Notes: generated by a model not told the origin, from the letters alone. 64,000 bases of DNA from Desulforegulaceae bacterium (GCA_034007295.1 JAVERC010000012.1:5329-69328); one strand, 5' to 3'. Counted from the first letter of the stretch, positions 52,172-56,406 are shown. Numbers and translations are program-made.

Positions 52172-53506
52172 ATGGGTGCAAAAATTATCAAAAAAGCAGA
52201 AACTGTAAATCCTGCAAAAGAAATTTTTGAAGATGAATTTGTAAAACTAAGCGACCTTAAAATCAGCCAGTCCAGTTTAAAAAATTCTTCAATAAGAATT
52301 TCAGGACAGATTTCAGAGCTTTCATCCCAAAACAAATGGGTTGAAATTGTTGAACTTTTTCATCCGCTCAATGACAAACTTCCTGAATTTGCAAACTCAG
52401 AATTTGAAGCAGATTTAAGGTCAAAAATTTCTTTTGCTTTAAATCAGCTCAAAAAATTTGATGAAGCAATTATTGAACTTCAAACAGCAGTAAATCTTCA
52501 GCCAGACAGGTTTATGTTTCATCACAGTCTTGCATACACAGCATATAACTCGCTTTACAGTGCAAAAAACAGGGAAGTTTTTTTAAGGGGAAATCATAAA
52601 AAAGAAAGAATTGAACTTGCAAGAAAACATTTTCAGGCAGCAATAGCACTTAAACCTGACACAATAACAAATTTTTACCGCATGGGAATGCTTGTAAAAG
52701 AAATTGAAGGAAAACCTGACAAGTCAATAAATTACTTTTTTTCAGCAGTAAAAAACTGGGAAAATCTTTCAAATGAAGAAAAAGAAAAAAGACATCAGGA
52801 AAAGAAAAACTATATTAAAGCTCTTTATCAGCTATCTTCAGTTCTTTTAAAATCAGGTAAAACAAATGAGCCTCTTTTGTATCTGAATAAGTGCATAGAA
52901 TACGATAATGAAACAAATTATCTTATGCCGCAAAACAAGTATTTTGCTCTTGGAAAAATTTATTTTGCATTGGCAGATTATGAAAAAGCAGCAAAAAATC
53001 TTGAAGTTGCAATGGAACATTCTTCAAAAAAAGAAGATTTTATAATTGAACTTCTGGCAAAAACCTACTTTTTTTCAGACAAGGCAGAAAAAGGACTTAA
53101 AACCATAAACATTTTAAATCCAAATTATTTAAAACCCTATTGCAGATGGACAAAGGCAGATATTTTGTGCGGTCTGGGAAAACTTGAAGAAGCAGAACAG
53201 GTTTTAACAGATAAAATTGAATCAGATATGAGGTCAAGACACAAAAGTTTAATAAAGCTTTCACAGCTTAGATATCTAAGGGGTGATTTTTCAAAAGCTC
53301 TTGAATTTGCAGTAAATGCATACAAATTTTCAAAGGAAACCTGGAACAATGACAATGCAGAATCAATTTATCTTCAGGCAGTATGCCATTTCAAGCTCAA
53401 AAATTCTGACAAGGCAATCAGAGCAATGGCAAAACTTAAAGAAGTAAACCCTGCATATTCAAAACTATCTGTTCTTGAAGAAAAATTTTCCTCACTTGTA
53501 AAATAA
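52172..53506 (+). CDS. TPR-repeat protein upstream of the adaptation module
   Basis: 444 aa. AGGAGG RBS. Multiple TPR-like units (e.g. FDEAIIELQTAVNLQPD, YEKAAKNLEVAMEH, SDKAIRAMAKLKEVNPA). 10-bp gap to the next gene. Confidence 0.7.
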   Translation: MGAKIIKKAETVNPAKEIFEDEFVKLSDLKISQSSLKNSSIRISGQISELSSQNKWVEIVELFHPLNDKLPEFANSEFEADLRSKISFALNQLKKFDEAIIELQTAVNLQPDRFMFHHSLAYTAYNSLYSAKNREVFLRGNHKKERIELARKHFQAAIALKPDTITNFYRMGMLVKEIEGKPDKSINYFFSAVKNWENLSNEEKEKRHQEKKNYIKALYQLSSVLLKSGKTNEPLLYLNKCIEYDNETNYLMPQNKYFALGKIYFALADYEKAAKNLEVAMEHSSKKEDFIIELLAKTYFFSDKAEKGLKTINILNPNYLKPYCRWTKADILCGLGKLEEAEQVLTDKIESDMRSRHKSLIKLSQLRYLRGDFSKALEFAVNAYKFSKETWNNDNAESIYLQAVCHFKLKNSDKAIRAMAKLKEVNPAYSKLSVLEEKFSSLVK

Positions 53507-53516
53507 AAGGTGAATT

Positions 53517-55091
53517 ATGGCATCAAATACTGCAAAGAAAAATTTATTAAAAAATGCTGATTACAGCCTTCTTGCAAAAAAAATTGAAAATAAAATTATT
53601 GAAGGTGCAAATCATCAGGAAATTGAAAAATTTTTAATAAATGGCTCAATCATTTCAGGTCTTGATGAAGAAATGCTTATAAAATGGAGTGAGCTTGCAA
53701 GAATGAATTGCAGTATTGGTGCAGCCGAAAAAATTTACAATTTTATCCATAAAAAATATCCGGATAATTTTTTGGCTTATGAAAATCATATTGAAATGCT
53801 TTCCATTTTAAATGAAAAAGAAAAGCTTATAAAAATTACAGCTCTTGCAAAACAAAATGGTTATAAAACAAATACTTCATTTTTTCAGCAGGAAGAAAAA
53901 ACAGATGAAATTGAAAAAAGTTTTTATCCACTTGAAAATCTAAGGAAAAATCAGGAACTTATTGAGCATTATTTTTCACTTTTTAAAGGAAGAACAGATG
54001 TTTTTGCAAGACAGTGGCATTCTAAGGAAAAAAATGAGCAGGGTTATATTCCTGTAAGACAAATTCTTACAGAAGATGAAATTGAATCTCATATTTCAGG
54101 AAGAGAAACACTTGGAATTTATATTTTAAACTCTGATAACACAGTAAATCTTGGAGTTATAGATATAGATGTAAAAAAGGAAATCCGCTCTGTTAAAGAC
54201 AAAAAACTTATTGGAAAAATAAACCAGGAATCTTTATGGATGGTAAAAAGAATCAAGGAAATTTCTTTAAACTATGAACTAAATCCTCTTTTGGAGTTCA
54301 GCGGAGGAAAAGGATATCATTTCTGGTATTTTTTCAAAAACTCTCCAAAAGCAGGAATTGTAAAAAAAATACTTGAGTCAATTACAAGTGAAATTAAAAA
54401 TGATTTAACATATTTTAATTTAGAAGTATTTCCAAAGCAGGACTATCTGTCTGGAAAAGGACTTGGAAACCTCGTAAAACTTCCACTTGGAGTGCATAAA
54501 AAAACAGGTAAAAAATCATATTTTCCTGAATGTAAAAAAAGAGAAAATCAAAGCCAGCTTGAGTTTTTAAAAAAATATTCAAGACAGGAAATTGATAATC
54601 TCAATATTAAAGAATCAAAAGCTGAAATTAAGGATTTTCCGGTAAAAAAAAATTCTGAACTTCCAGAACTTGTAAAGCTCAAAAACCTTTGTCCGCCAAT
54701 AGGACAAATTATTGTTCAATGTCTTGATAAAAAAAATATTTCAAGAACCCAGGAAAAAATTATTTACCAGACAATAGGCTTTCTTCCCCAGGGAAGAAGG
54801 CTTGTTCACAAACTTTTTCAAAGAATGCCTGATTATAATGACAAGCTTGTTGATTTATATCTTACAAAACTTAAAGGAACTCCACTTGGGTGCAAAAAAA
54901 TCCACAATATAACAGAATATACAGGAAACTACTGCTATTTTGAAAAAACAGGCGATTATCTTACTCCCCTGCTCCATCTTGGATATTCACCGGAACAATT
55001 TAAGGGAAGGTCTGAAAAAACCCAAAGTCTTCAGCAGGCACTTGAAAACCTTAAAACTGCAATTTCAATAGTTGAAAGGTACATGAAATAA
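53517..55091 (+). CDS. CRISPR-associated primase-polymerase (CAPP)-like AEP/PrimPol protein
   Basis: 524 aa. FKGRTDVFARQW....GYIPV, catalytic GVIDIDVK (DxD), SGGKGYHFWYFF and KLPLGVHKKTGK are archaeo-eukaryotic primase motifs. Has a helical N-terminal region and a Cys-containing C-terminal domain. The stop is 1 nt before cas1. Confidence 0.7.
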   Translation: MASNTAKKNLLKNADYSLLAKKIENKIIEGANHQEIEKFLINGSIISGLDEEMLIKWSELARMNCSIGAAEKIYNFIHKKYPDNFLAYENHIEMLSILNEKEKLIKITALAKQNGYKTNTSFFQQEEKTDEIEKSFYPLENLRKNQELIEHYFSLFKGRTDVFARQWHSKEKNEQGYIPVRQILTEDEIESHISGRETLGIYILNSDNTVNLGVIDIDVKKEIRSVKDKKLIGKINQESLWMVKRIKEISLNYELNPLLEFSGGKGYHFWYFFKNSPKAGIVKKILESITSEIKNDLTYFNLEVFPKQDYLSGKGLGNLVKLPLGVHKKTGKKSYFPECKKRENQSQLEFLKKYSRQEIDNLNIKESKAEIKDFPVKKNSELPELVKLKNLCPPIGQIIVQCLDKKNISRTQEKIIYQTIGFLPQGRRLVHKLFQRMPDYNDKLVDLYLTKLKGTPLGCKKIHNITEYTGNYCYFEKTGDYLTPLLHLGYSPEQFKGRSEKTQSLQQALENLKTAISIVERYMK

Positions 55092-55092
55092 A

Positions 55093-56127
55093 ATGGAATC
55101 AGTATACATAATGGAGCCAGGCTCATTTATAAGAAAAAACGGCGGAGAATTTTCAATTGTAAAAAATGGTGCTGTTTTAAATACAATTCCCTCATCCAAT
55201 ATAAAACGAGTTGTTCTTGCAAAGGGGGTTTCACTTACCTCTGCTGTTTTGGATTATTTTGTAGACAATAAAATTGAAACTGTATTTTTAACAAGAAACG
55301 GAAAATTTCGTGCAAGAATTTCAACAGATGAAAACTCAAAAGTTGAGCTTAGAAAAAATCAGTATTTTTTATTGTCAGATTCTGTTTATTCCAAAAAATT
55401 TGCCTGTGCTGTTGTAAACGGAAAAATTAAAAACATGTCAAATTTCATGGCTTTGCGTGGAAGGGATTACAATGACAGACAGCTTTCAGAGGCAGGACTT
55501 GCTTTAAAAAGCTTTAAACCTGTTTATACAGATTCAATGGATAAAATCCGAGGCCTTGAAGGTGCAGCATCTGCACTTTATTTCAGAATGTTTAAAAAAA
55601 TGATTAAAAACAATGATTTTACCTTTGAAAAAAGAAGTAAAAGACCTCCACTTGATCCAATAAATGCCATGCTTTCATATATTTATACAATTATTTTGTC
55701 CGAGGTTTTAACAGCAATTCAGATAAAAGGATTAGACCCCTATCTTGGAGCTTTGCATGAAATTTTACACTCAAGACCCTCTCTTGCCTGCGATCTTGTT
55801 GAAGAATACCGTGCTCCGGTTGCAGACAGATTTGTTTTGGAGCTTGTTAACAGAAAAATTGTTAAAAAAGATGATTTTGTTTTAAGGGATATAAAAAATG
55901 CTTATGCAGATGAAAAAGACATGGCTCAAAATCGTCCTGTTGAAATGAAGCCAAAATTCAGGAACAAGTTTATTGAATCATACGAATATATGATGAATAC
56001 AGGACTTTTTTATCCGCCTGAAAACAAAAAAATGGAAATAAGAAAAATAATTACAAGACAGATTTCTCAATTTATTGAATCTCTCGAAAATAAAACAACT
56101 TACAAGCCTTTTGAATGGAAAAGATAA
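55093..56127 (+). CDS. cas1: CRISPR-associated endonuclease Cas1
   Basis: 344 aa. Typical Cas1 N-terminal beta domain (VYIMEPGSFIRKNGGEFSI...) and C-terminal helical domain with EGAASALYF, PLDPINAMLSY, DPYLGALHE, LACDLVEEYR. Confidence 0.9.
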   Translation: MESVYIMEPGSFIRKNGGEFSIVKNGAVLNTIPSSNIKRVVLAKGVSLTSAVLDYFVDNKIETVFLTRNGKFRARISTDENSKVELRKNQYFLLSDSVYSKKFACAVVNGKIKNMSNFMALRGRDYNDRQLSEAGLALKSFKPVYTDSMDKIRGLEGAASALYFRMFKKMIKNNDFTFEKRSKRPPLDPINAMLSYIYTIILSEVLTAIQIKGLDPYLGALHEILHSRPSLACDLVEEYRAPVADRFVLELVNRKIVKKDDFVLRDIKNAYADEKDMAQNRPVEMKPKFRNKFIESYEYMMNTGLFYPPENKKMEIRKIITRQISQFIESLENKTTYKPFEWKR

Positions 56128-56406
56128 ATGTTTTACCTTATCTGCTTTGACATTGTTGATGATAAAAAAAGATACCGTGCTGTAAAAATACTAAAAAAAT
56201 ACTCTGTGCGAGTACAAAAATCAGTGTTTGAAGCCTATGATTTAGATGATTACAAACTTCAGAAACTTCGCTCAAAACTTTCAGAAGTAATTGATCACAG
56301 TAGTGATTCTATACGATATTATCCTCTTTGCAGAGCTTGCAGAACTTATATAAAGCAGGAGGGAATCGGACCTGAGCCTGTTCGTGTTCCATGGGTTGTT
56401 GTTTAA
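56128..56406 (+). CDS. cas2: CRISPR-associated endoribonuclease Cas2
   Basis: 92 aa. MFYLICFDIVDDKKRYRAVKILKKY..RVQKSVFE is the canonical Cas2 ferredoxin-fold start. Abuts the cas1 stop. Confidence 0.85.
   Translation: MFYLICFDIVDDKKRYRAVKILKKYSVRVQKSVFEAYDLDDYKLQKLRSKLSEVIDHSSDSIRYYPLCRACRTYIKQEGIGPEPVRVPWVVV

Follow-up and report, generated by a model that had tools for sequence, protein, structure and literature searches.

We analyzed a 64,000-nucleotide stretch of DNA from a Desulforegulaceae bacterium (GCA_034007295.1, JAVERC010000012.1:5329-69328; hereafter the window, with positions counted from its first letter), in which four tightly packed genes encode a protein made of tetratricopeptide repeats (TPR), a CRISPR-associated primase-polymerase (CAPP), Cas1, and Cas2. 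These genes almost certainly form a CAPP type A1/Cas1/Cas2 spacer-acquisition operon of a type III locus, and we consider it probable that, taken as a whole, this is an adaptation operon with the TPR protein as its subunit or adaptor. The separate TPR gene is not a local oddity, as it is conserved beside these genes in Desulfobacterota, Muiribacteriota, and Myxococcota. From comparative genomics we lean, with less assurance, toward the prediction that its product acts as a physical component of the CAPP-Cas1-Cas2 machinery. The four genes are:

52172..53506, + strand: stand-alone TPR protein, 444 aa (open reading frame list; Pfam TPR families; PADLOC PDLC01172)
53517..55091, + strand: CAPP type A1 (CAPP-TPR type), 524 aa (NCBIfam NF040561; Pfam AEP-TOTE; PADLOC PrimPol)
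55093..56127, + strand: cas1, 344 aa (Pfam Cas_Cas1; TIGR00287)
56128..56406, + strand: cas2, 92 aa (Pfam CRISPR_Cas2)

The list of open reading frames (ORFs) and the reading of the junctions agree on four same-strand genes (52172-56406) with gaps of 10 nt between TPR and CAPP, 1 nt between CAPP and cas1, and 0 nt between cas1 and cas2, as an earlier note on this DNA had described. All four ORFs are full length and all four proteins are basic (pI 9.1 for the TPR protein), and an AGGAGG Shine-Dalgarno sequence lies 6 nt 5′ of the ATG of the TPR gene. A promoter and terminator scan gave no signal above the shuffled expectation and was not used. The TPR gene would be co-transcribed, and probably translationally coupled, with the CAPP gene. 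The arrangement is far beyond chance, since the same four-gene set was seen in more than 130 independent loci.

The CAPP, Cas1, and Cas2 proteins

The 524-aa protein clearly belongs to the CAPP type A1 family. It matched the NCBIfam profile NF040561, "CRISPR-associated primase-polymerase type A1", at 410 bits for a cut-off of 200, with aa 30-522 aligned to profile positions 4-514 of 515, and the PADLOC profile "PrimPol adaptation polymerase" (PDLC01101) over its full length at 324 bits. The best Pfam family for its archaeo-eukaryotic primase (AEP) domain was AEP-TOTE (E 3e-44), and the motifs DIDVK (aa 216), GGKGYHFW (aa 263), and KLPLGVHKKTG (aa 321) are present. No Y.DD motif was found anywhere in the protein and no RVT match in the Pfam scan, while the PADLOC profile RT_UG10_large matched through the PrimPol part only (aa 154-482). 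The protein is thus an AEP-type primase-polymerase and not a reverse transcriptase, as the earlier note had proposed from the motifs. At the structural level, the AEP core (aa 145-362) matched the solved Prim-Pol domain of the Marinitoga sp. 1137 CAPP by sequence (7NQD/7NQE/7NQF/7P9J/7QAZ, E 3e-38), and Foldseek placed it on 7P9J (TMt 0.83, 36% identity). An AlphaFold (AF2) model built from 20 homologs showed three domains separated by disordered linkers:

53517..53855, + strand: N-terminal helical TPR-like domain of CAPP, aa 1-113 (AF2 model, Foldseek)
53934..54596, + strand: AEP (Prim-Pol) catalytic domain of CAPP, aa 140-360 (PDB match, fold, invariant residues)
54663..55085, + strand: helical C-terminal domain with conserved Cys/His, PriCT-like (invariant residues, AF2 helices)

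The N-terminal domain was modeled as eight helices (aa 4-113, pLDDT ~90) resembling three-TPR modules of ~100 residues in Foldseek (CTPR3, SGT, and the designed TPR M4N, TMt up to 0.72); as Pfam TPR models stayed below significance there, its TPR nature is a prediction from structure. In the model, the AEP domain has an alpha/beta core spanning aa 140-360, and D216, D218, G263, K265, G266, H268, D296, K321-G325, and H327, among them the catalytic residues, are invariant in the 20 homologs. The same homologs keep C339, C392, C459, C473, and H463 invariant; the C-terminal region is helical in the model (aa 383-523), with no PriCT match in Pfam.

The identity of Cas1 and Cas2 is equally clear from Pfam (Cas_Cas1, E 1e-79; CRISPR_Cas2, E 5e-21) and from TIGR00287 (246 bits for Cas1). 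Cas1 E156, H222, and D234, as well as Cas2 D8, are conserved across 81 sequences. Against the 86%-identical relative L087, the ratio of nonsynonymous to synonymous substitution rates (dN/dS) was 0.13 for CAPP, 0.06 for Cas1, and 0.10 for Cas2.

CRISPR-associated Prim-Pols were defined by Zabrady et al. in 2021, whose class CAPP_A includes a "CAPP-TPR" type made of an N-terminal TPR domain (aa 1-100 in MpCAPP), an AEP domain, and a PriCT-like C-terminal domain (PMC8211822). Because this is the published architecture, the N-terminal TPR-like region of the window protein, which the earlier note had regarded as extra, is instead a defining part of the type. The Marinitoga CAPP has primase, polymerase, and strand-displacement activity and binds Cas1, and the TPR and C-terminal domains of CAPP mediate self-association; activities are known for the Marinitoga and Dysgonamonadaceae CAPPs only (PMC8211822). 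Since catalytic residues and architecture are conserved, the mechanism of these homologs may be extended to the window: Cas1-Cas2 would be the integrase for prespacers, as shown for homologs, and CAPP would bind Cas1, prime and extend DNA, and fill or displace strands at integration intermediates.

Like the Marinitoga CAPP-Cas1-Cas2(-Ago) system, the window has, within a type III locus, a CAPP with the same three domains immediately before cas1-cas2. In the Marinitoga operon, the array lies directly beside CAPP, and Ago, which binds its C-terminal domain, is the accessory protein (PMC8211822); the window has neither an Ago gene after cas2 nor an array beside CAPP, but in it, as in most relatives from Desulfobacterota and Myxococcota, CAPP is preceded by a TPR protein of ~450 aa encoded by its own gene. 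RT-Cas1 and CRISPR-associated reverse transcriptase modules are also comparable, as a polymerase is attached to Cas1-Cas2 in type III systems and DNA is made or completed for integration. The window polymerase differs from them by its AEP fold, its lack of a YxDD motif, a gene unfused to cas1, and a TPR partner. Shah et al. (2018) had already listed a cluster 227, "PrimPol, adaptation polymerase" (Sfum_1354), in III-A and III-B adaptation modules (PMC6546367). Their cluster 198, "TPR protein" (Mrub_1490), may or may not be the TPR family of the window.

The stand-alone TPR protein and its linkage to the adaptation genes

Many Pfam TPR families matched the 444-aa protein, and the PADLOC profile PDLC01172, "TPR repeats containing protein", aligned with it end to end (496 bits, residues 8-438 on profile positions 11-443 of 448). 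The family is therefore already catalogued among Cas- or defence-associated proteins; the catalogues, whose profiles match both CAPP (PDLC01101) and the TPR protein over their full length, give the latter no function. Our literature search found no paper on the role of the TPR partner, and TPR neighbours go unmentioned in the supplements of PMC8211822.

The AF2 model of the protein (pLDDT 92) is all-alpha: its ~24 helices form one unbroken TPR solenoid, and ~25 disordered residues make up a tail in front of it. Foldseek matched this model only to generic superhelices (OGT, CTPR, BBS4/8 of the BBSome, and APC subunits), from which no functional clue emerged, and the fold contains no catalytic domain and no NTPase or other signalling domain. 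The family alignment nevertheless shows many invariant residues beyond the TPR consensus (W56, R83, Y122, Y125, R170, W196, R207, Q209, E210, K212, N213, W326, T327, D330, D352, H357, and K358), together with an invariant acidic-aromatic D-x-F (D21, F23) in the otherwise variable tail. A dN/dS of 0.12 against L087 indicates purifying selection. The protein is not a duplicate of the N-terminal domain of CAPP, as hhalign gave a probability of 0.1% and no relation between the two.

In a search of 1.84 billion cluster representatives, the family comprised 83 clusters at E<=1e-30, followed by a sharp drop to the generic TPR background. The same search returned a more distant tier of ~400-aa TPR proteins from Myxococcota, 18-30% identical to the window protein, which keep R170, D352, H357, and an RDxxGRH motif and have no acidic tail.

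The linkage of the TPR gene to CAPP was tested in both directions. In the forward test, a scan with the CAPP alignment was run on one genome per species, and the best 80 of 188 relatives were used, nearly all of them metagenome-assembled genomes of Desulfobacterota, with one Muiribacteriota. By tblastn, a near-full-length TPR homolog (33-65% identity) was found in 73 of the 80 loci. Five of the seven others have less than 500 bp of sequence upstream of CAPP; hence 73 of 75 informative loci carry the TPR gene, and only L042 and L063 lack it despite available sequence. Conversely, metagenomes scanned for TPR-family motifs gave 80 loci, 62 of them with CAPP, which lies directly downstream on the same strand in 56. 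In 14 of the CAPP-less loci the sequence stops no more than 300 bp from the TPR gene, which leaves 66 informative loci, 62 of them with CAPP; in two of the other four, cas2 adjoins the TPR gene. The earlier note had called the separate TPR gene an extra of this locus and had staked its reading on the co-occurrence of TPR with CAPP-cas1-cas2: the linkage is strong, and with a PADLOC profile of its own the gene is no extra. Overall, what stood of the earlier interpretation is the AEP primase-polymerase rather than reverse transcriptase, its CAPP family, its operon with cas1-cas2, and the type III-B locus, while the view of the TPR parts as additions did not hold.

When both directions are pooled, 135 of 141 informative loci, which span different phyla and gene orders, show the linkage. 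This two-way result effectively refutes the idea that the TPR gene encodes an unrelated housekeeping or envelope protein lying by chance next to cas genes, to which we give next to no credence. The generic NCBIfam matches of the protein (MamA, PilW, and LcrH) would suit such an idea, as would the outer membrane protein (OMP) beta-barrel gene after cas2; these matches, however, fall well under their cut-offs, and the sharp boundary of the family at E<=1e-30 also speaks against it.

Spacing and gene order also bear out the linkage. Over 133 loci, the CAPP gene starts a median of 14 nt after the TPR stop, and a 4-nt ATGA overlap is the arrangement seen most often; the Myxococcota have TPR-CAPP-Cas1-Cas2 operons with stop and start codons overlapping by 4 nt. 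The TPR gene is retained in shuffled orders as well (CAPP-Cas1-Cas2-TPR; CAPP-Cas2-TPR-Cas1; TPR-Cas1-Cas2...CAPP; Cas1-TPR-CAPP; Cas1-Cas2-TPR-CAPP). Three independent in-frame deletion fusions of TPR and CAPP sequence were found, one of which was checked at the DNA level. P0440 (755 aa, L172 8001-10268) joins the N-terminal half of the TPR protein to the AEP and C-terminal domains; P0268 is a similar fusion, and P0265 consists of TPR, an AEP remnant, and Cas1. P0440 is a real in-frame deletion fusion: a frameshift artefact was rejected, as both parts share one reading frame and no frame contains the halves that are missing.

The four TPR homologs that were examined on long contigs all lie in a TPR-AEP-TOTE-Cas1-Cas2 order beside either Csm-type (L081) or Cmr-type (L083, L087, L090) genes. 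This bears on a rival in which the TPR protein bridges CAPP-Cas1-Cas2 to the Cmr/Csm complex or to a prespacer-producing nuclease; the earlier note had likewise suggested a scaffold linking adaptation to Cmr. TPR solenoids are classic multi-partner scaffolds, the module is always found in type III loci, and the Marinitoga operon has, instead of a TPR protein, an Ago that binds the C-terminal domain of CAPP. The TPR gene, however, tracks cas1, cas2, and CAPP through rearrangements and not the effector subtype, so the link to Cmr found no specific support, and no nuclease consistently adjoins the module. Moreover, the Cmr cassette of the window has the opposite orientation to that of L087 and L090, yet the block from the TPR gene to cas2 (86-92% identical) stays colinear with L087, the closest relative, and this colinearity extends to the OMP gene. 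Comparison with both loci makes it evident that the cassette was exchanged and inverted. We therefore regard a bridging role as unlikely.

A second rival draws on TOTE ("TPR, OB, TBP, Effector") conflict systems, where AEP effectors have TPR proteins as partners, according to 2022 work as cited in PMC12458937. The window operon is similar in that AEP-TOTE is the best Pfam family of its AEP domain and the AEP protein shares its operon with a TPR protein; it differs in that the partners are Cas1 and Cas2 of a CRISPR adaptation module. Neither an OB/CSD nor a TBP domain was found by Pfam in the operon or among the scanned neighbours (upstream, 47374-47655, 47984-48517, the Cad1-like and NUDIX-like genes, and the 77-aa ORF; downstream, the OMP gene and cmr1-6, all described below). 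On this account, TOTE membership, suggested by the Pfam name, was rejected.

The TPR protein might still be a sensor or regulator that gates CAPP or Cas1 until a phage or cellular ligand binds. Beyond the TOTE parallel, this would fit the disordered tail with its D-x-F and the many invariant charged residues, as well as the plausible harm of unrestrained primase and integrase activity. However, neither the TOTE components nor an NTPase or other signalling domain accompanies it, and the Myxococcota subfamily keeps the linkage with no acidic tail. The present data do not separate a sensor from simple scaffolding, and we judge the former improbable.

A physical role of the TPR protein in the adaptation complex has to be weighed against several points. 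Contact between the TPR protein and its partners, or an effect on acquisition, is a prediction from gene content and conservation. The correlations of pairwise distances over 80 non-redundant loci (0.86 for TPR-CAPP, 0.85 for TPR-Cas1, and 0.84 for CAPP-Cas1), for which there is no unlinked control, reflect co-inheritance as one module and nothing more. The TPR-CAPP fusions may be either natural fusions or decaying genes, and decay would count on the same side. The TPR protein is not universally required, since the CAPP operon characterised from Marinitoga functions in vitro with no TPR partner of this kind (PMC8211822). Finally, the 64-kb window contains no CRISPR array by Tandem Repeats Finder (TRF), a repeat search, a k-mer scan, or a search for the L087 repeat with <=3 mismatches, and no cas6.

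Array status and type III surroundings

The lack of an array and of cas6, to which that of an MJ1673-family gene adds in the same 64 kb, also suggests a rival reading, in which the operon would be an orphan that has ceased to acquire spacers after a rearrangement removed its cas6 and cognate array. In L087, a 19-repeat array (repeat GTCAGAAATTAGCCTCGCTTCGAGAGGATTAAGAC) lies just upstream of Cad1, and cas6-MJ1673-cmr1 follow the OMP gene. At the array position, the window has instead ~140-bp direct repeats (47207-47345 and 47805-47945) with a frameshifted AAA-ATPase_like remnant between them (47329-47720), 86-90% identical to aa 419-549 of an intact gene in L084. A mazEF toxin-antitoxin remnant, moreover, has been inserted before the TPR gene.

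Against such an orphan stand the four full-length ORFs, their intact catalytic residues, and dN/dS values of 0.06-0.13 relative to L087. Arrays can lie elsewhere in a genome, the window ends inside cmr1, and 51 of 87 loci are also without an array in their available sequence, many being on short contigs. We thus find it rather implausible that the operon is a relic. As the operon is intact and under purifying selection, the window copy probably serves an array elsewhere in the genome.

Two further observations concern the array position. A segment of the ~140-bp direct repeats, GAGGATTAA, is similar to the 3′ terminus of the repeat in L087, but the remainder does not align, and it was rejected as a repeat remnant. 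An acidic 177-aa ORF (47984-48517) with no Pfam or PADLOC match follows the AAA-ATPase remnant and is built from a 72-nt unit repeated 3.6 times in tandem (48073-48334). The ORF begins with MVEIWDD, and this start has a match in L087 just 3′ of the array (ATG at 7013); as this counterpart is non-repetitive, the 72-nt repeat has expanded in the window.

The neighbours of the operon are:

48844-50976, + strand: Cad1-like CARF-adenosine deaminase, 710 aa (PADLOC CARF5--CARF_ADA, 705 bits; Pfam A_deaminase, E 1e-43)
50960-51553, + strand: NUDIX-like gene, 197 aa (PDB 3E57 (TM1382), E 1e-18; Pfam NUDIX, E 0.04)
51626-51859, - strand: MazE/RHH-like antitoxin ORF, 77 aa, with a 4-nt overlap with the start of a MazF/PemK-like toxin
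56519-57121, directly after cas2: OMP beta-barrel gene (Pfam OMP_b-brl)
57309..64000, - strand: cmr6-cmr5-cmr4-cmr3-cmr2(cas10)-cmr1 (Pfam RAMPs, Cas_Cmr5, Cas_Cmr3, Cmr2_N, Cas10 palm2)

With the Cad1-like and NUDIX-like genes upstream and cmr6 to cmr1 downstream, the locus is type III-B with cyclic-oligoadenylate accessories. The cmr genes are convergent with the adaptation operon, and cmr1 is cut by the window end (Cmr1 has 437 aa on L084). The Cad1-like and NUDIX-like genes overlap by 17 nt, and the pair recurs near CAPP modules in L016, L019, and L087/L093, upstream of TPR in the last two, which suggests a conserved pair of deaminase and nucleotide-pyrophosphatase effectors.

The toxin gene next to the 77-aa antitoxin ORF stops after 38 codons, and the whole remnant (51513-51859, - strand) lies in a 618-bp spacer before the TPR gene, a spacer of 96 nt in L087. 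The OMP gene, an odd neighbour for a cas operon, has the same place in L087 (75% identity, dN/dS 0.33). The Cas10/Cmr2 protein of the window (581 aa) is 100% identical to a copy on L084, which points to cassette shuffling between close strains. On L084, SSB, UvrD-like helicase, and 2CompART genes form the flanks, and a Csm module and cas6 lie upstream. A small gene of the MJ1673 (or MJ1674_2nd) family recurs in L081, L082, L083, L087, L090, and L174; in related loci it lies just upstream of TPR or between cas6 and cmr1. Farther away in the window (28578-28976), an unrelated PAAR-like toxin-domain gene is followed by genes for a STAS anti-sigma antagonist, a HATPase anti-sigma kinase, and a SpoIIE phosphatase.

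The TPR partner in type III spacer acquisition

The identification of CAPP-Cas1-Cas2 is already known biology, and in this respect the window adds nothing categorically new. Only the stand-alone TPR partner merits follow-up, as it is conserved, catalogued, and functionally unexplored. From the genomic data, its solenoid would be a stoichiometric, non-catalytic scaffold or adaptor subunit, which would assemble or stabilise the complex, or present a nucleic-acid or protein substrate to it.

Type III spacer acquisition and the role of a dedicated primase-polymerase in it are still poorly understood, and the published CAPP work concerns Thermotogae and Bacteroidetes proteins without a separate TPR partner. 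Most public type A1 CAPPs come from Desulfobacterota, almost all with the TPR gene, and the TPR-CAPP linkage is as tight as that of CAPP and Cas1; for these reasons, a reconstitution with four proteins is probably closer to how most such systems work. For annotation, a gene for a TPR protein of ~450 aa beside AEP-TOTE, cas1, and cas2 should be counted with the adaptation module.

We tentatively put forward a further possibility, in which this ~450-aa protein would be an obligate Cas component of CAPP-type complexes in Desulfobacterota and Myxococcota and would determine the nucleic acid that CAPP-Cas1-Cas2 receives; it might do so by capturing single-stranded fragments or by docking the complex. 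If this were true, type III acquisition in these lineages would need a four-protein machine rather than Cas1-Cas2 and a polymerase.

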